From assembly GCF_022846255.1 (NCBI RefSeq), contig NZ_AP025682.1: DNA of 64,000 bases. One strand, 5' to 3'. The translations under genes were made by a program, and so were the position numbers. This document shows positions 7,674 to 61,584 of the stretch, one piece after another; position 1 is the stretch's first letter, and each line of letters begins with the position of its first letter. The notes under the pieces were generated by a model. That model searched no databases. It was given only the letters and a program-made list of their open reading frames with translations, and had not been told where the DNA came from. The stretch is from Escherichia coli. Lineage in GTDB: Bacteria; Pseudomonadota; Gammaproteobacteria; Enterobacterales; Enterobacteriaceae.

Positions 7674-8678
7674 TTAAAGATGAGGAACCGGTAGCACAAC
7701 GCCCGGTTGCAGGTAATGCTCAATACGCAGTAAAAGATCGGTGATGAGAAGCTCGCGGTTGATGCCTGTGACAGACATTAACTGTTCACGAATGTGGCAA
7801 ACATCCCCCAGTATAGCCTGCAGGCGCGAGGGAGAAAGATGGTTTGCCAGTTCGACGACCAGGCCCGGCACATCAACATTGGTCACCTGCGCAGCGCCAT
7901 GATGGCGTTTTAGCGCATCCATCAGCAACGTTGCCAGCCAGTGTAAACGTGCCGGAGCTTGTTCATGATTAAGGGCCGCTAGCAGCGAATACCAGTCGCC
8001 CGATTGCACGCTATATGCCAGCGCCTGACACAATGTTTCACGAGCCTGCCAGTTATCTCCCTGAAACAACGCCAGTGCCGCCCCAGGCGAACCGGCGCTT
8101 AAGCGCAATGCGGCAAGTAGTGCAGCCTGTGACATTGTCACTTCGCGTGAAAGCCAGGTCACGGCGTACTGTTCCGGCGGCGGCGCAAGGTAATGTAACC
8201 GACAACGACTACGTAATGTTGCCAGTAAACGTTCTGGCTCGCGGGTAGCAAGGAAAAACCACGTCTCTGCTGGTGGCTCTTCAAGCGTTTTCAGCAATGC
8301 GTTAGCCGCGGCGTCGGTTAGTAAGGCAGCATCGGTTACCCAGACAACTTTCGCACCACCTAAGCGTGCGTGCTCATTCAGCTTTTCGGTGACCTCACGT
8401 ACCGCATCAATGCCCAGCGCATTTTTCCCTTTTTCGGGAGCCAGGGTGTAGTAATCGGGATGTGTGCCAGCCTGCATCAACTGACATCCACGACAGTGAC
8501 CGCAACTTTTGTGGCCCTGCGGTTGTTGGCAGAGTAAATAACGGCTCAGGGCATAGATTAAAGCATCATCGCCCATGCCCGGTAACGCCTGAATGAGTAG
8601 CGCATGGTGACCTCTTCTGGCCTGATAGCTGGCTACCAGTTTTTCGAAATCAGGTCGTAACCATGGATACCATCTCAT
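7674..8678 (-). CDS. holB: DNA polymerase III delta-prime subunit
   Basis: 334-aa ORF; 4-bp overlap with tmk; conserved tmk-holB-ycfH order. Confidence 0.9.
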
Positions 8679-9316
8679 GCGTCCAACTCCTTCACCCAGT
8701 TGGTCACGGTAGTGCGGATTGCATCCATCACGGCCTCCAGCGGCTGGGTGGCATCAATGGTATGAATGCTTTTATCTTGTGCTGCCAGTTCCAGATAGCG
8801 GGCGCGGGTGCGATTAAAGAAATCGAATGACTCTTGCTCAATACGATCCAGCTCACCACGGGCGCGAGCACGTTTTAAGCCGACCTCTGGGGTGACATCA
8901 AGATAAAGCGTTAAGTCAGGGCGAAAATCCCCGAGAACAGCATCACGCAGTGTTGCCAGCATATGTTGGTCAATACCTCGTCCTCCACCCTGATAGGCTT
9001 GAGTAGAGAGATCGTGGCGATCGCCAATCACCCAGGTGCCGTTAGCCAGCGCAGGTTTGATGACCGTTTCTACCAGTTGAACGCGCGCGGCATAAAACAT
9101 CAGAACTTCGGCTTTATCGGTAATGACTTCATCGCCTACCGATTTGATATCCAGCACCAGGCTTCTTAACTTTTCGGCAAGTTGCGTACCGCCAGGTTCC
9201 CGAGTGAAAACCATGTCGCGGATACCCAGTTGCTCAAGCGTCTCAACCACCACGTTACGCGCGGTAGTTTTGCCTGCGCCTTCCAGCCCCTCAATGACGA
9301 TATACTTACTGCGCAT
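8675..9316 (-). CDS. tmk: thymidylate kinase
   Basis: 213-aa ORF with P-loop GLEGAGKTT near the N-terminus. Confidence 0.9.
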
Positions 9317-24889: not shown

Positions 24890-26315
24890 TAATGCCAGTC
24901 AGTTAAGCAACTGACTGGCTCTTTTTCGGGGCTGTGGGGTATTTCCAGGGCCTCTCCTTTACCACTCTCGGGAAGGCCCTTTCCCTTCTTGTCGGTAATT
25001 TCACAAGTTGTCCCATACTTGCAAGATCGCGCATCAGCTCCGGTATACGTCCCGGTGAAGCGCCCTGCAATGTCATCAGCATTCTCATCACCATTCCACA
25101 TGATTCTGAGAAACTCAGTTGATTCGGCCAGTAACCTTTCAGATGTTCCGCCATTTTAATCATCTGATATCTCACCAGATTATAAGCCAGTAAGACACCC
25201 CACAGCTCTTGCTCCACAAGCTCCGGTTTTTTACTTCTCAGCGTCAGCCTGCTCAGTTGCATCGTCTGTTTTATCTCCCTGTATCCCAGTTCGATTTCCC
25301 AGCGATGACTGTACAGATCCGCCATTTCTCCTCCGGGGAAGCGCATGGCGTCCGTCATCGACGTCAGCAGATGGCAGACTTTTCCTTTGCGCGTCACGGT
25401 CAGCAGGCGGGCTGTCACTTCATTTCCCAGTCCCGGCCACTTTTTTCGTGCCTGCGGGCTGGTTTTCAGCTTCACCAGATGATCGCCTTTACCCAGTTTT
25501 CTGATCTCTTCATATTGCGCTCCCTTTCTGAGAGGTATCATCCAGTGGCGGTGTTCTCCCGCCAGGCTCCAGGCATTTAACAGTCCCAGTGAGTAATAAC
25601 CTTTATCCATTAACGTCAGAGTGTTATCGCCGGTTTGTTCTATAAGTTGCTCAGCAAGCTCATTTTCGCTGTTCTTCATCGTGCCGAAGGCTGCAGCCGT
25701 CAGCAGATGGCTGGTCAGTTCCATCTGGCAGACCATTTTGACCTGCGGGTAGAGCGCCGGGTTCCCGGCATGTGTCTGGCGGGGGAAGGCTGCATCGTTC
25801 TCTGGTGTATCCGGTGTGCGCCAGAACACACCATCGATGGCCAGCAGGGTCAGGCCGCACCAGTGCGGATGCGGCGTGGCGTTATGCCAGAGCTGCGCTG
25901 TTTTCGTGAACACGCGGCGGACAGCCTCACTTCCCAGGCGCTGGCGGGCCTGAATAACGGCACTGGGGGCAACGAAGGGGCGATTGCCCGGCAGCATGAT
26001 GTCCAGGCGATTCACAATCTGGTGAAGAGGTTCTTTACGCTCAAGCGCCATGCCAACAATACACCAGACCATCATTTCGAGGGGAAGACGGCGCTTGCGT
26101 AGCGTTACAGTACCTGATTCGGCAAGGCAACGAGAGATGAGTTCGGGGTCGAGGTAATCCCCCAGAGAAGTCAGTGGGTTACGCAGAGAATCGTAACGGG
26201 ATACCAGATCAAGAGCCTGTCCAATGTGCATAAAAAAATCCGGAAACAAGTGAGCGTTTCCGGATTCTTACACAGCCACTGGATCGGTCAACTGATCCTT
26301 AACTGATCGGCATTA
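24890..26315 (-). mobile_element. IS4 insertion sequence, complete (1426 bp)
   Basis: 18-bp terminal inverted repeats TAATGCCAGTCAGTTAAG (24890-24907) and TAATGCCGATCAGTTAAG (reverse complement of 26298-26315), 16/18 identical; 11-bp flanking direct repeat; single long transposase ORF. Confidence 0.95.
24903..26231 (-). CDS. IS4 transposase
   Basis: 442-aa ORF starting [34 protein letters not shown]…, recognised as the IS4 transposase; start trimmed from the 448-aa track ORF. Confidence 0.93.
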
Positions 26316-26326
26316 CAGCCTAGCTG
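26316..26326. repeat. IS4 target-site duplication, right copy (CAGCCTAGCTG)
   Basis: Identical to 24879-24889. Confidence 0.9.
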
Positions 26327-26340
26327 GGGGTTTTCTGTGC

Positions 26341-26376
26341 ACAAAAATGCCCGCCCCGGCGATCCCGGAGCGGGCA
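26341..26376 (-). terminator. rho-independent terminator of the flgBCDEFGHIJKL/flgKL transcripts
   Basis: Minus-strand hairpin GCCCGCTCCGG-gatcg-CCGGGGCGGGC followed by a T-run, about 40 bp after the flgL stop. Confidence 0.7.
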
Positions 26377-26417
26377 GACAAAACATACCCAGTTTCATGA
26401 TATGTTTTAAAGCGAGC

Positions 26418-27371
26418 TTATTTGTTGAGCTGGAAGAGCGACAATCCCTGCATATCGGTAAATGCTTTATACGATGCCTGCAATGCCGTTTGCTGCATGA
26501 TGTAAGATGAAATAGTTGCATTCCAGTCCACATCAACCAGATCGCTCATCTGCTGCGTTTGCCCTAAAGCGCGATCGCTACCTAATGAATCAAGCGACTC
26601 CAGTTCGTTCAGCTGCGTGCCTAATTCCGCGCGAACAGTCAGCACATTGTTCAGCGAGTTTTTCAGTCCGCGGTTGGTTTTATCCAGTGCCGCAGCGGCG
26701 GTTTCTTTATCCGCTTCGCTATCCGCGACCGGCGTTTTCAGGGCTGCGATGGCGCTATCCAGCATGGCAAAAAGATTGGTTTCAGAAGCGCTACCGTCTG
26801 GTTCCGCTACCGCGTTGCTGGTAATACTGTCGAAAATTTTGTCGCCCGTATGTCCTATCACCATCGAACGCGAAGCATCGACCTGTTGTTTAATACTTTC
26901 TGTTCCGCCGACATAATCACCGTCAGCCTCACTAAACGGCGCAGTCTCTGTTTTATAACCGGCAAAAATGTAGCGCCCGTTACCGTCAGTGGTGTTCGCC
27001 AGATTCAGTAACTGATCACGAAGCCCCTGAATATCCGTAGCCAGTGAGGCCCGGTCATCGTCACTCAAGGTGCCATTGCTGGCGTAGACAATTTTTTCCT
27101 GAGCATTCTGGATAGCAGTGGTGACCTGGCTAAGCACACTCTCTTCCAGTGACACTTTTTGAGTGGCGAAAGTACGCGCCAGCGTGTACTGGCTGTTTTG
27201 CGCCTGTGCCTGGGAGAGAACAACAGCTTGTGATGCAGCAATGGGATCGTCTGAAGGGTTAACGACTCGCTTACCCGTCGACATCTGTTCGCCGTACTTC
27301 ATCCATTCTGCCTGAGAATTGGTGATGCCGCGCATGTTTTGCTGGTACATCATCTGGGTACTGAAACGCAT
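26418..27371 (-). CDS. flgL: flagellar hook-associated protein 3
   Basis: 317-aa ORF with flagellin-like N- and C-terminal helical segments; last gene of the flg cluster. Confidence 0.92.
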   Translation of the reverse strand: MRFSTQMMYQQNMRGITNSQAEWMKYGEQMSTGKRVVNPSDDPIAASQAVVLSQAQAQNSQYTLARTFATQKVSLEESVLSQVTTAIQNAQEKIVYASNGTLSDDDRASLATDIQGLRDQLLNLANTTDGNGRYIFAGYKTETAPFSEADGDYVGGTESIKQQVDASRSMVIGHTGDKIFDSITSNAVAEPDGSASETNLFAMLDSAIAALKTPVADSEADKETAAAALDKTNRGLKNSLNNVLTVRAELGTQLNELESLDSLGSDRALGQTQQMSDLVDVDWNATISSYIMQQTALQASYKAFTDMQGLSLFQLNK

Positions 27372-29091: not shown

Positions 29092-30033
29092 TCAGAACAG
29101 ATTATCAATGTTCATACTGTAGGTTTTGCTCACTTTGTCGCTTATCGATTTCATCTGCTGAATCATGTTGGTGAGTTTGCGGGCATAGTGAGGATCGGTG
29201 GCATAGCCCGCGTCCTGTAGGGCCTGTGCCCCCTGCTCCGCACTCACGGCGGTCGTCACGGCAGCGTAGCGCGGATTACGTGTTAACAGCCCAACGTAAT
29301 CCGACAATGCTTCCAGATACGAGCTGTAGACCCGAAATTTCGCTTTTACTTTCTTCGCTTCGCCGTTTTCATATTCAGTCGTGGTGATTTCAGTGACTGG
29401 CCCTTTCCAGTTGCCAGAGGCTTTGACGCCAAACAGGTTGTAACTCGGCTCGCCGTTTTCGCGGCGGATTTGCCGTTGTCCCCAGCCAGATTCCAGCGCC
29501 GCCTGAGCGAGGATCAAATGATGTGGCACACCGCTTTGCTGGCTTGCCAGTTGGGCGGGCAGTGAGAGTTGCGCGAGGAATGCTTTACTGTTACCCGGCA
29601 ACGAATCATCGTAGTTACGTGGTACGGCCTTTTGCACCAGCTGAGAAAGCGCCTGATTTTGATAACGCACCACAGTTTCGAGCGGGAATTTCATCGGTGC
29701 TGCTGGCGTGGGCTCCTCTGGCAATGGTTGTTCTGGCGTCATCTGTTTAACCATCATCTCTGCAAGCCCCAGACCTTTGCCCGCCGTCATCTGTTGGGCA
29801 ATCTGCTGGTCATACATACTGGTATACAGGCGAGTGTGCTCGCTGCTGAACAGGCCATCTTTTGGTAAAGCGTCGCGCATGCTTTTCAACATCATCTGCA
29901 CGAACATCCCTTCCACCTGGCGGGCCACCGGACGGATATTTGCCGCTGGATCTTCGCCAGCTTTCGCCTTTAGTTCGTTGAGTGATTGCGCATCCCAGGC
30001 CGCACTTGCCAGTAGTTTGCTGTCGCTGATCAT
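29092..30033 (-). CDS. flgJ: flagellar rod assembly protein / muramidase FlgJ
   Basis: Start trimmed to [26 protein letters not shown]… (313 aa); ATGA overlap with flgI stop. Confidence 0.9.
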   Translation of the reverse strand: MISDSKLLASAAWDAQSLNELKAKAGEDPAANIRPVARQVEGMFVQMMLKSMRDALPKDGLFSSEHTRLYTSMYDQQIAQQMTAGKGLGLAEMMVKQMTPEQPLPEEPTPAAPMKFPLETVVRYQNQALSQLVQKAVPRNYDDSLPGNSKAFLAQLSLPAQLASQQSGVPHHLILAQAALESGWGQRQIRRENGEPSYNLFGVKASGNWKGPVTEITTTEYENGEAKKVKAKFRVYSSYLEALSDYVGLLTRNPRYAAVTTAVSAEQGAQALQDAGYATDPHYARKLTNMIQQMKSISDKVSKTYSMNIDNLF

Positions 30034-31133
30034 CAGATGATTTCCAGTTTTGCCCGCAGACATCCCGCACTTTGCATTGATTGCAAAATAGACATCAGAT
30101 CCATCGGCGTAGCGCCCAGCGCATTGAGCGCGCGCACCACGTTATTGAGGCTGGCGCTGGAACGTACGCTTTGCAGCGAACCGCCGCTCTGGCGTAAATC
30201 GATCTGCGTTTGTGGAGTAACCACAGTCTGTCCACCACCAAACGGTGTATCTGGCTGGCTGACATTGGCCTGACGATTGACCGTAACCGAGAGATTCCCC
30301 TGCGCTACTGCGCAGCTGTCGAGGGTCACTTCGCGATTCATCACCACCGAGCCAGTGCGCGAGTTAATCACTACTTTAGCGTCCTGCGGGGTGACATTAA
30401 CCTGCATATTCTGAATATCGGCAAGGAAACGGACCTGGGAACTGTTGCCACTTGGTACGCGCACCTGAATAGTCCGCGCATCTAACGCGGTGGCGCTGCC
30501 ATATCCACGCACGCGGTTGATGGTGTCAGCGATTTGCTGCGCCATGCTGAAATCTTCGTCGTTAAGTTGCAAATTAAGGGTATTCCCGACGCCAAACTGG
30601 CTGGGCAATTCACGTTCAATAACCGCACCATTGGTGATCCGTCCACCGTTCAGTTGGTTCACCTGAACACTGCTACCGCCAGCAGAGGCTCCTGCGCCGC
30701 CAACCAGAATATTGCCCTGCGCCAGAGCATACACCTGACTGTCAACGCCCTTAAGCGGTGTCATCAACAACGTACCGCCACGCAAGCTTTTGGCATTACC
30801 CATGGAAGAAACCACCACATCGATGGTTTGCCCCTGGCGTCCAAACGGCGGAAGTGACGCCGTCACCATTACCGCAGCGACGTTTTTTAGCTGCATATTG
30901 GTGCCCGTCGGAACGGTAATTCCCAGCTGTGAGAGCATGTTATTAAGCGTTTGTGTGGTAAACGGCGTCTGGGTTGTCTGGTCACCGGTTCCATCCAGCC
31001 CCACCACCAGGCCATAGCCAATCAGTGAGTTTTGCCTTACCCCCTGAACACTGGTGAGATCGCGAATACGCTCAGCCTGAGCCGCCGTGATAACCAGTAG
31101 AAGAATTAATGCAGAGAGAAATTTAATCACCAC
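30033..31133 (-). CDS. flgI: flagellar P-ring protein
   Basis: 366-codon ORF with signal peptide. Confidence 0.93.
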
Positions 31134-53223: not shown

Positions 53224-53598
53224 ATGACCATGTACGCAACGCTTGAAGAAGCCATTGACGCTGCACGCGAAGAATTTCTTGCAGACAACCCCGGCATCGA
53301 CGCCGAAAACGCGAATGTGCAACAGTTCAATGCCCAAAAATACGTTTTGCAGGACGGCGACATCATGTGGCAAGTTGAGTTTTTTGCCGACGAAGGAGAA
53401 GAAGGTGAATGTTTACCTATGCTTAGCGGTGAAGCCGCGCAAAGTGTCTTTGACGGCGACTATGATGAGATAGAGATCCGCCAGGAGTGGCAAGATGAGA
53501 ATACATTACATGAATGGGACGAGGGGGAATTTCAGCTTGAGCCACCGCTGGATACCGAGGAAGGACGCACTGCAGCTGATGAGTGGGATGAACGTTAA
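53224..53598 (+). CDS. msyB: acidic protein MsyB
   Basis: 124-aa highly acidic ORF MTMYATLEEAIDAAREEFLADNPGID…. Confidence 0.88.
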   Translation: MTMYATLEEAIDAAREEFLADNPGIDAENANVQQFNAQKYVLQDGDIMWQVEFFADEGEEGECLPMLSGEAAQSVFDGDYDEIEIRQEWQDENTLHEWDEGEFQLEPPLDTEEGRTAADEWDER

Positions 53599-53997: not shown

Positions 53998-58180
<4,183 letters not shown>

Positions 58181-58462: not shown

Positions 58463-59620
58463 ATGAATCCAGTACCCGCGCAACGTGAATATTTCCTCGA
58501 CTCCATCCGCGCCTGGCTGATGTTGTTAGGGATCCCTTTTCATATTTCTTTAATCTATTCGAGCCATACATGGCATGTGAATAGCGCCGAACCGTCATTG
58601 TGGCTGACCCTTTTTAATGACTTCATCCACTCGTTCCGCATGCAGGTATTTTTCGTTATATCCGGGTACTTTTCCTACATGCTTTTTTTACGCTATCCCT
58701 TGAAAAAATGGTGGAAAGTACGTGTCGAACGTGTAGGTATCCCGATGTTAACAGCCATCCCCCTACTGACATTACCGCAATTTATTATGCTGCAATACGT
58801 CAAAGGGAAAGCGGAAAGTTGGCCTGGGCTATCATTGTATGACAAATATAATACGTTGGCCTGGGAATTAATATCACACCTGTGGTTTTTACTGGTGTTA
58901 GTAGTCATGACGACGCTGTGCGTATGGATATTTAAACGCATCAGAAATAATTTAGAAAATTCTGATAAAACGAATAAAAAATTCTCGATGGTAAAACTAT
59001 CGGTGATTTTTTTGTGCCTCGGCATCGGTTATGCGGTAATAAGAAGAACGATTTTTATTGTGTATCCGCCCATTCTGAGTAATGGCATGTTCAATTTTAT
59101 TGTCATGCAAACGCTATTTTATTTGCCGTTCTTTATCCTAGGCGCACTGGCTTTCATTTTCCCTCATCTTAAAGCCTTGTTTACCACGCCGTCTCGTGGC
59201 TGTACCCTTGCAGCAGCATTGGCGTTTGTCGCTTATTTACTCAACCAGCGCTATGGCAGTGGCGATGCCTGGATGTACGAAACCGAGTCGGTGATCACCA
59301 TGGTCCTCGGTCTGTGGATGGTGAATGTGGTCTTCTCCTTTGGCCACCGTTTGCTTAACTTCCAGTCAGCGCGGGTGACTTATTTTGTTAACGCATCGCT
59401 GTTTATCTATCTGGTTCACCACCCGTTAACGCTGTTTTTCGGCGCATACATTACACCGCACATCACCTCCAACTGGCTTGGTTTTCTCTGTGGCCTGATA
59501 TTCGTTGTAGGGATCGCGATAATTCTGTATGAAATTCATTTACGCATCCCGTTACTGAAGTTTTTGTTCTCTGGTAAACCGGTTGTTAAGCGTGAGAACG
59601 ATAAAGCACCAGCCCGTTAA
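58463..59620 (+). CDS. opgC: periplasmic glucan succinyltransferase (membrane acyltransferase-3 family)
   Basis: 385-aa polytopic ORF divergent from opgGH. Confidence 0.88.
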
Positions 59621-59627
59621 GCCACGC

Positions 59628-61058
59628 TTATAATAACCATTCCACGGGCAATATCGACGCCAGTCTGACCATAACCCGCTTCCAGAAACTGGTGGCGGGT
59701 TCTTTTTTGAGAATAATCTCTTTCTTTGCATGACGATCAACCCAGTTGATCCGTCCCCACCTGTCCAGACGGAGCTGCCAGGCCGCATCATACTGGCTCT
59801 GAATAAAGCGTTTATCAATTAACTGTGCCAACGTTTCGCTCTCTATCACGAAGCCCATTTCAGTATTGAGCAATGTCGAACGTGGATCGAAATTGAAAGA
59901 GCCGATAAACACCGTTTTACCATCGATGCTAAAGGTTTTAGCATGCAAGCTGGCACCGGAATTACCGGTTATGCCGCGATCGTGTAACGTACTACTTTGT
60001 TCACGCGTCGGCTTGAGTTCATATAATTCCACGCCATAGCGGAGCAATTTTTTGCGCCAGCGCGCGTATCCGGCATGGACGACAGCAACATCGTTAGCGG
60101 CAAGAGAATTGGTTAGGATCGCAATCTTTACCCCTTTTCTCACCATCCGTAAGAGTTGCGCCACACCTGCACGTGTCGGTACAAAATAGGAAGAGATAAT
60201 ATCGATGCGTTCACTGGGTGAGCCCATGATATCGAACAGGCGCTGCGGTAACAGTGAATGCCGTTTTGCCTTGCCCTCCCCTTTCGCCGGATCATCACTT
60301 AATAAACGTGTTTTCGCCCAGATAAGCGACAACGTTCCATCAACCAGATGATTTATAAACGGACTGGATTCCATTTTGCGTAAATAACGATGCGTCATGG
60401 CATCGTCATGCCAGGATGCAGGTAACTCGATGCGATCCGCCATTTCACCTTCCGGGACATCCAGCACCTGCTGTAAGGGTGAAACCGATTTGCAATACCA
60501 ATAGCGGGCGAAATCATCGGCAACGTCCTCTACCACGGGTCCTATTGCCATGACATCTAAATCCGAAAAAAGTGGCTCTTCCCCTGCACCAAAATAGGCA
60601 TCACCAATATTTCGTCCCCCTACCAGGGTAACCACGCCATCGACAGTGAAACTTTTATTGTGCATACGGCGATTGAGACGGGAAAAGTCGGTGATATAAC
60701 CAAGCGGACGCAGCAAGCGAAACGAGAAAGGATTAAAAAGCCGGACTTCAATGCGGGGATGACTGTCAAGCAAGCGTAAAATGTCGTCAAGTCCGGGCGT
60801 ATTGTTGTCATCCAGCAACAAACGGACGCGAACGCCACGCTTTGCTGCGGCTAACAGGGCGGAAAAGAGTAACCGACCCGACATATCGTCCTGCCAGATG
60901 TAATACTGAACATCCAGCGTATGCTCTGCCATTTCGGCCAGACGATACCGGGCGGCAAACGCATCCAGACTTTTCTCCAGAGGGAAAAGACCACACTGAC
61001 CGGGATGTTGCGAACACAGTGGCAGCACCGCGCTCGCCAGCCGGGGCAAATCATTCAT
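59628..61058 (-). CDS. clsC: cardiolipin synthase C (phospholipase D family)
   Basis: Two HxK(x)4D motifs (…HNKSFTVDG… and …HAKTFSIDG…); start codon uncertain, ATG at 61058 chosen, alternatives at 61106/61109. Confidence 0.85.
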
Positions 61059-61584
61059 CTCCTTGTTGGGTAAGGAGTCTTTCGTAGAGGTGGGCGTTTT
61101 CTTCATCATAACAGACAAAGTATACCTGTTCGGGTAAAGCGTGACGGGTAATAAATTCTGAAACGGTTTTTACTGCGATTTCAGCCGCTGCCGCACGAGG
61201 GTAACCATAAACCCCAGTACTGATTGCAGGAAAAGCCACTGACGTATAGCTGTTTGCCGCCACCAGTCGTAGGCTATTGAGATAGGCATCCTGCAAAAGC
61301 TGGTCTTCGTTTTGTTCACCACCACGCCAGACTGGCCCGACGGTGTGCACTACGGCTTTAGCGGGAAGATCGCCTGCAAGCGTAATAACGGCATGCCCCG
61401 TAGGGCAATCGCCCTGCTGTTGCCTGACTTTTAAACAGGCATCCAGCAGCGCCGGACCCGCTGCGCGATGAATGGCCCCATCGACGCCGCCGCCTCCCAT
61501 TAATGACGGATTAGCCGCATTCACAATCACATCAACGGCCAGTTTGGTAATATCACCCTGCACAACATGAATACGCGTTTTCAT
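61051..61584 (-). CDS. ymdB: macrodomain O-acetyl-ADP-ribose deacetylase YmdB
   Basis: 177-aa [42 protein letters not shown]… (macro domain). Confidence 0.9.

Follow-up and report, generated by a model that had tools for sequence, protein, structure and literature searches.

The gene overlaps in the 64,000-nucleotide stretch of Escherichia coli DNA considered here (the window) are ordinary and of an already known kind at six of the seven junctions where an earlier note had reported them; the seventh report, concerning ymdB and clsC, is inaccurate in detail. The six are very probably operon-internal junctions in which the downstream start lies 1-20 nt before the end of the upstream stop codon, with translational coupling likely. 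They indicate that the window is normally organized E. coli DNA and that the gene starts at these places can be trusted, and they have little further import. The useful by-product is the ymdB/clsC junction, where ClsC has 473 aa in the K-12 annotation versus 493 aa in that of PGAP, and this unsettled start of clsC is the only item that deserves to be followed up.

Gene overlaps in the window

By megablast and gene order, the window is the nagZ-csgB portion of the E. coli chromosome, which in K-12 MG1655 lies at about 1.10-1.17 Mb and runs the other way; the gene-order match spans 1.104-1.165 Mb, in reverse orientation. The genes follow in the order nagZ-thiK-lpoB-...-rne-(toxin-antitoxin pair)-flgL...flgA-flgMN-murJ-...-opgHG-opgC-clsC-ymdB-ymdA-csgCAB. 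Two elements of the window are missing from K-12, an IS200C::IS4 insertion and a toxin-antitoxin pair of the TacA/TacT type. Annotations were drawn from two sources, the curated annotation of K-12 MG1655 and that made by NCBI PGAP on genomes 99.1-99.3% identical to the window, which is the identity of the best complete genomes in the megablast comparison. Altogether 66 K-12 coding sequences were mapped onto the window; all are full length, with intact frames and with the same start and stop positions, except nagZ, which the end of the window truncates.

Both strands were read, and all seven strings of letters are present where the earlier note had placed them. Comparison with the K-12 annotation, which the note had proposed as its check, upheld six of the seven junctions: at these, start and stop codons do overlap in the curated K-12 annotation and in that of PGAP alike, the toxin-antitoxin pair, absent from K-12, being annotated by PGAP. 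Two lie in the operon pabC-mltG-tmk-holB-ycfH, on the minus strand. There, tmk and holB meet in an ATGA at 8675-8678 (tmk TGA, 8675-8677; holB ATG, 8676-8678), a 4-nt overlap or spacing of -4, and mltG and tmk overlap in ATGCGCAGTAA at 9306-9316 (tmk ATG, 9314-9316; mltG TAA, 9306-9308), a spacing of -11. Also on the minus strand, flgI and flgJ of the flgB-L operon meet in TGATG at 30031-30035 (flgI TGA, 30033-30035; flgJ ATG, 30031-30033), with base 30033 common to the stop and the start (-1); lpoB and thiK, in hinT-ycfL-lpoB-thiK-nagZ, overlap by 20 nt at 1161-1180 (thiK GTG, 1178-1180; lpoB TAA, 1161-1163; -20); and opgG and opgH, of opgGH, share ATGAATAA at 56534-56541 (opgH ATG, 56539-56541; opgG TAA, 56534-56536; -8). 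The sixth junction is on the plus strand, where the stop of a DUF1778 antitoxin and the start of a GNAT toxin form an ATGA at 23681-23684 (-4) in the TacAT-type pair.

The earlier note had called such overlaps ordinary for E. coli, and this is correct. Their frequency is near the prokaryotic norm. With the K-12 starts, 6 of the 53 co-directional adjacent pairs in the window overlap, or 7 of 53 if the seventh junction is counted (11-13%), and a further 13 of the 53 are separated by gaps of at most 15 nt. For most prokaryotic groups, Huber et al. (2019; PMC6728339) put the overlapping share of co-directional pairs at about 15%, so that the window, at 6 of 53 (11%), is typical and not enriched. 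Genome-wide, the most enriched spacing is -4, followed by -1 and -8, and more than 80% of overlaps are shorter than 30 bp (Brown and Wade, 2025; PMC12548453). The junctions tmk/holB, antitoxin/toxin, flgI/flgJ and opgG/opgH fit these enriched classes, and mltG/tmk (-11) and lpoB/thiK (-20) fall outside them.

Translational coupling

The overlaps had been taken to suggest translational coupling. This is a fair inference for the spacings of -4, -1 and -8 and a weaker one for -11 and especially -20, because coupling decays quickly with overlap length: it is most efficient from -4 to +3 nt, none was seen at -25 in one study, and coupling is reported to be poor once the overlap reaches 20 nt (PMC12548453). 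On this analysis, coupling is likely at tmk/holB, antitoxin/toxin, flgI/flgJ and opgG/opgH, possible at mltG/tmk and doubtful at lpoB/thiK. A ribosome ending the upstream gene would re-initiate at the nearby start, aided by an SD-like motif inside the upstream gene; alternatively, ribosomes translating the upstream gene would prevent the initiation region of the downstream gene from folding. Either way, the amount made of the second protein would depend on that of the first. When 100 nt around each start were folded, none was more stable than its dinucleotide shuffles (z from -1.07 to +1.30), which leaves the unfolding form of coupling without specific support and makes reinitiation a more natural model than the unfolding of an inhibitory hairpin.

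The window pairs resemble pairs known to be coupled (PMC6728339; PMC12548453), for which the junctions of the trp operon are the classical example (Oppenheim and Yanofsky, 1980, as cited in PMC12548453), in being co-directional, in lying within one operon and in having the downstream start overlapping or just before the upstream stop. The spacings of -4 (NTGA), -1 (TGATG/TAATG) and -8 are all present in the window, and several of its pairs have an SD-like motif inside the upstream gene. They differ from the known cases in the spacings of mltG/tmk and lpoB/thiK; we found no published coupling experiment on any of these junction pairs.

A different reading, which we regard as somewhat unlikely, is that the overlaps are real but neutral, with each downstream gene relying on its own SD for de novo initiation, and with genome compaction and an easily evolved NTGA accounting for the overlap. 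The -4 spacing does evolve easily, since the start codon supplies three of its four bases (PMC12548453), and the E. coli pair bioBF behaves in just this way, with de novo initiation despite its overlap; however, bioBF was one of five E. coli overlap pairs tested, and the other four were coupled by termination-reinitiation (PMC6728339). The SD-like motifs themselves point in both directions. That in front of holB, UGAAGGAGU, which lies inside tmk, 7 nt upstream of the start, is strong (-8.3 kcal/mol) and would suit independent initiation, as would the lack of any inhibitory structure requiring unfolding; moderate motifs precede the GNAT toxin (-6.5 kcal/mol, 7 nt) and tmk (-6.1 kcal/mol, 4 nt). 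In contrast, the weak or poorly spaced motifs of flgJ (-3.3 kcal/mol), thiK (-4.9 kcal/mol, 3 nt) and opgH (-5.6 kcal/mol, at 16 nt) fit poorly with efficient independent initiation.

Conservation likewise bears on both sides of the question. Starting from Tmk homologs, we found the array pabC-mltG-tmk-holB-ycfH to be the same in Salmonella, Klebsiella aerogenes and Kosakonia, and in all three the 11-nt overlap of mltG and tmk (ATG-N5-TAA) and the 4-nt ATGA of tmk and holB are retained, with a GGAG 8-9 nt ahead of the holB start. At pabC/mltG the window has a 2-nt gap and Kosakonia a 4-nt overlap, showing that junction types interconvert across genera, as neutral overlaps would. Against neutrality stands the opgG/opgH junction. 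A single scan for ClsC relatives gave 80 loci, 40 of which also had opgG-opgH, and in these and the window (41 of 41 Enterobacterales loci) ATGAATAA is invariant, while the N-terminal identity of OpgH across the same loci goes down to 44%; the invariance extends to synonymous sites just upstream, the preceding CCTGCC being identical in 39 of the 41. For flgI/flgJ and lpoB/thiK the comparison covered E. coli genomes.

That the overlaps are artefacts of wrong start assignment, so that the genes would not overlap at all, is very improbable. It gains something from clsC, for which it is true in spirit, three start assignments being in competition there, and from the in-frame downstream alternatives that exist for thiK (TTG at +39, its sole alternative, at a cost of 13 residues), opgH (ATG at +30) and the toxin (ATG at +24). 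However, curated and automatic annotations agree on all six overlaps, and three of them cannot be annotated away, as holB, tmk and flgJ have no plausible overlap-free start: holB has no other in-frame ATG, GTG or TTG from -78 to +90, the next in-frame start of tmk, at +63, would delete the P-loop, and flgJ has no downstream in-frame alternative within 30 codons. The opgH ATG at +30 is missing in many species, whereas the one at position 0 is invariant, and the toxin chain of PDB 7AK7, the solved Salmonella homolog, aligns from toxin residue 1.

The start of clsC

The ymdB/clsC junction is broadly of the same kind, the start of clsC lying at the end of ymdB or within it. The minus strand across the junction reads ...CAACAAGGAGATGAATGATTTGCCCCGG, and the stretch 61047-61064 holds the SD sequence AAGGAG (61059-61064), the ATG chosen in the earlier note (61056-61058), the ymdB stop TGA (61051-61053) and the K-12 clsC start, TTG (61047-61049). 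Although ATGAATGA is indeed present at 61051-61058, where an overlap had been reported, ATG 61058 is used by no annotation. The note had allowed that other start assignments could remove its overlaps, and for clsC they do change the picture: the K-12 start abolishes the overlap, giving a protein of 473 aa after a 1-nt gap, and the PGAP start, ATG 61107-61109, lengthens it to 59 nt and gives 493 aa. Depending on the start chosen, the spacing is +1, -8, -56 or -59. The AAGGAG stands 9 nt from TTG 61049 and 0 nt from ATG 61058, and the latter is the least supported of the candidate clsC starts.

Three candidates in the clsC frame lie inside ymdB at 61104-61118, on the minus strand: TTG 61116-61118 (-69 relative to the K-12 start), ATG 61107-61109 (-60, the PGAP call) and ATG 61104-61106 (-57). 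If clsC starts in this cluster, the overlap is 56-68 nt and ClsC gains 19-23 residues, with TTG 61049 and ATG 61058 as minor or secondary starts. We give this reading somewhat less than an even chance. PGAP calls ATG 61109 in every E. coli genome inspected, among them strain Trh52, a divergent pig-farm strain and the K-12 derivative DH5alpha. Tetracycline ribosome profiling in K-12 reported a new ATG at -57 for ymdC (clsC), with signals of 0, 30.1 and 16.1 in three samples, where the annotated TTG gave 0, 0 and 5.7 (PMC4909307, Table S2, row 99); over the clsC start stretch the window matches K-12 derivatives at 100% identity, and the profiling data therefore transfer directly to it. However, the authors flagged the -57 signal as "not conclusive (5' ORF)" (PMC4909307), because it lies within the strongly translated ymdB. 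The region of the start cluster is predicted by RNA folding to be unstructured, as would suit initiation there, but there is no good SD before the ATG at -60 or at -57, only an AGGU 5 nt before the TTG at -69, whereas the E. coli TTG has its strong AAGGAG at 9 nt. NCBIfam has no ClsC-specific model able to fix the N-terminus, and the text of the Ribo-RET preprint makes no mention of clsC.

Within E. coli the junction varies too little to inform, 4,924 of 5,423 genomes having at least 99% identity there, and the comparison was made across 21 Enterobacteriaceae loci in which ymdB overlaps clsC or ends within 1 nt of it. Several of these have a start at the junction. Citrobacter reads TGAtATG, its ATG being orthologous in position to the TTG of E. 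coli, and C. werkmanii has an ATGA junction together with an in-frame stop at -12, so that the short form of ClsC suffices there; both count against the longer form, and Citrobacter supports a start at position 0. E. albertii has TTA in place of TTG, keeps the ATG at -9 and has its SD changed to AAGGCG, and Dryocola, Cedecea and Buttiauxella have a stop-N-GTG at -15. In favor of a start inside ymdB, the stretch from the ymdB stop to TRLGRAI, a conserved N-terminal motif, has no ATG, GTG or TTG in Leclercia, two Enterobacter, Pseudescherichia, Atlantibacter, Superficieibacter, Kosakonia and Siccibacter; in these lineages without a junction start, clsC must begin within ymdB.

In 20 of the 21 loci no stop interrupts the clsC frame as far back as an ATG or TTG aligned with the E. 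coli -60 position; the exception is C. werkmanii. In synonymous resamplings of the YmdB tails from Leu-Thr lineages the frame stayed open with a probability per lineage of about 0.26, or about 0.34 with a context-specific control, figures that are rough since the lineages are not independent. The frame depends on codon choice at a ymdB Leu-Leu pair (CTC CTT, 61072-61077, minus strand): for the second, critical Leu, relatives use CTT or CTC in every case and never the common CTG, which would create a TGA in the clsC frame. A start codon at the aligned ATG/TTG position arose by chance in 85-96% of the synonymous resamplings and was therefore discarded as evidence; only the openness of the frame is informative. 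Similarly, the third-position T that makes this ATG or TTG is also found in Mixta, where ymdB and clsC do not overlap, and this weakens the case for the longer form. In favor of it, third-position entropy over the final 24 aligned codons of ymdB is 0.9-1.0 bits, down from about 1.3, and synonymous variation is reduced over codons 154-162, with near-invariant synonymous sites at codons 155-162.

Loci in which ymdB does not directly adjoin clsC also favor the longer form. In Phytobacter, ymdB ends 181 nt upstream of clsC, and a degenerate, non-coding relic of the ymdB block, with an ATG, lies directly before clsC, two codons after an in-frame stop. Erwiniaceae homologs without an upstream ymdB also have an extension, of 13-16 residues, ahead of the TRLGRAI motif. 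On the other hand, the extension of the longer form is poorly conserved as a peptide. Both long and short starts of clsC may be used in E. coli. If the PGAP start is correct, the junction is like other long same-strand overlaps in that its 59-nt overlap, in the +1 frame, is held open by ymdB codon choice, and it is unlike them in that the curated K-12 annotation has no overlap here at all. Overlaps as long as 59 nt are uncommon and are reported not to couple by reinitiation (PMC12548453).

The position of the start matters for an older observation. Good expression of ClsC has long been noted to need ymdB in cis, and why ymdB must accompany clsC is not understood (PMC8027125; PMC4966929, one of them a review); reviews speak of an effect "by an unknown mechanism," and the role of YmdB has been called "obscure" (PMC4966929). 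The title of a 2024 paper by Sawasato and Bogdanov, listed among the references of PMC13015257, states that the substrate specificity of ClsC does not require the ymdB product. We put forward, as an unlikely but specific proposal, that clsC starts at 61104-61118, 57-69 nt upstream of the K-12 TTG, and that the need for ymdB is a cis effect and not due to YmdB activity. A clsC initiation region inside ymdB would be a cis reason for cloning ymdB with clsC. In addition, the CUCCUU of the Leu-Leu codons is predicted to pair with the AAGGAG, and this hairpin, which appears in both the MFE and the centroid structures, would sequester the SD of the short start until opened by ribosomes translating ymdB. 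If the proposal is true, the need for ymdB gains a cis explanation.

A frameshift at the ymdB stop (AAGGAG-AU-GAA-UGA-U), in a geometry that we take to resemble that of prfB, would fuse YmdB to ClsC, since slippage by +1 at GAA UGA leads exactly into the clsC frame and the GAA codon has the SD-like AAGGAG 2 nt upstream of it, but we reject the fusion as next to impossible: GAA in the P site is not slippery for +1 re-pairing, the SD is found only in E. coli, being lost in E. albertii (AAGGCG) and Citrobacter, the geometry of the junction varies between genera and is not conserved, and the literature consulted on clsC and ymdB suggests no fusion protein.

The toxin-antitoxin pair

The pair between rne and flgL has the DUF1778-then-GNAT arrangement of TacA/TacT, with the antitoxin gene first, the toxin gene second and a 4-nt overlap between them. 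The antitoxin matches PF08681 (DUF1778, TacA-like; E = 1.2e-26), and the toxin matches the GNAT families PF13508, PF13673 and PF00583 (TacT-like). PDB 7AK7 is the closest solved structure (E = 7.7e-76 for the toxin, 1.2e-45 for the antitoxin). By family membership, the toxin would acetylate aminoacyl-tRNA and be neutralized by the antitoxin. The likeness to Salmonella TacA/TacT thus extends to the PF08681 antitoxin, the GNAT toxin, the gene order, the ATGA junction and the strong similarity to 7AK7; the difference is that the copy in the window is chromosomal in E. coli and is found in just a minority of complete genomes (686 of 5,426).

Conserved sequence at gene junctions

The start/stop overlap of opgG and opgH lies within a block, CCTGCCAATGAATAA (region 56534-56560, minus strand), that could be followed in the window and in loci L005-L060 of our scan for ClsC relatives; it is unchanged in 39 of 41 Enterobacterales loci, and the identity extends to the synonymous sites of the OpgG Pro and Ala codons. 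A TGGAG stands about 17 nt upstream of the opgH ATG in the window; of the remaining 40 loci, 39 keep its GAG part. Conservation here exceeds what dual coding alone would need.

A comparable pattern is seen near the 3' end of ymdB, where the synonymous sites of codons 154-162 (61095-61125, minus strand) are nearly invariant across genera: TAC stands in 13/13 cases, TTT in 15/17, GTC in 14/18 and GAA in 17/17. This near-invariance suggests an overlapping signal, at the RNA level or coding, and the clsC initiation region is a plausible identity for it. Closer to the short clsC start, both the MFE and centroid structures predict a hairpin at 61059-61077 (minus strand; 6 bp, 7-nt loop), in which CUCCUU from the Leu-Leu codons of ymdB pairs with the AAGGAG Shine-Dalgarno sequence of that start. 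The perfect 6-bp pairing is specific to E. coli, since E. albertii reads AAGGCG.

In Phytobacter massiliensis (L022, 5900-6000) clsC lies 181 nt beyond the end of ymdB, yet the ymdB 3' block survives in degenerate form, GATATACTTGAGCTGCTATGACAATAAAAATGCCC, immediately 5' of clsC, now outside any YmdB reading frame. We take this relic as evidence for a past rearrangement in which the 5' region of clsC was preserved.

Two convergent gene pairs are also tightly packed, msyB (plus) and yceK (minus), whose stop codons abut at 53598/53599 with 0 nt between them, and opgC (plus) and clsC (minus), which are 7 nt apart (59620-59628); in neither pair is the intergenic space large enough for a terminator.

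The N-terminus of distant ClsC homologues

Many non-enterobacterial ClsC homologues (L043-L084) have an N-terminal hydrophobic stretch whose last residues are a lipobox-like ...L(A/S/G)GC, which is followed by LPSLExR and then by the conserved TRLG motif. The strict lipobox pattern is present in 11 of 38 homologues and a loose match in more. These distant proteins look like lipoproteins, whereas the enterobacterial ClsC is without any signal peptide.

The rne-flgL interval

Among 5,426 complete RefSeq E. coli assemblies (Shigella lying outside the search), none matched the window above 99.1-99.3% over 25-kb stretches, so the strain of origin is either missing from these assemblies or part of a lineage that they do not represent. 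Between rne and flgL, where K-12 has only a 195-bp spacer, the window carries a TacA/TacT-family toxin-antitoxin pair (23391-24175, plus strand), composed of a DUF1778 antitoxin and a GNAT toxin (best PDB match, 7AK7); the pair occurs in 686 of the 5,426 complete genomes, in one copy each, on the chromosome. Beyond it lies an IS200C with an IS4 inserted in its terminal hairpin (approximately 24200-26338), the IS4 being flanked on both sides by the 11-bp direct repeat CAGCCTAGCTG. This composite is found in other genomes at other sites, with 99.4-99.8% identity; it is absent at the rne-flgL locus in the complete E. coli genomes, as none covers at least 80% of 23200-26500. The composite directly adjoins the flgL 3' end (26338-26420, minus strand), the region annotated in K-12 as the 78-nt sRNA FlgO. 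The terminator hairpin there is intact, and the U-tract reads TTTTTGT in place of TTTTTTT, a change that could affect termination or the FlgO 3' end.
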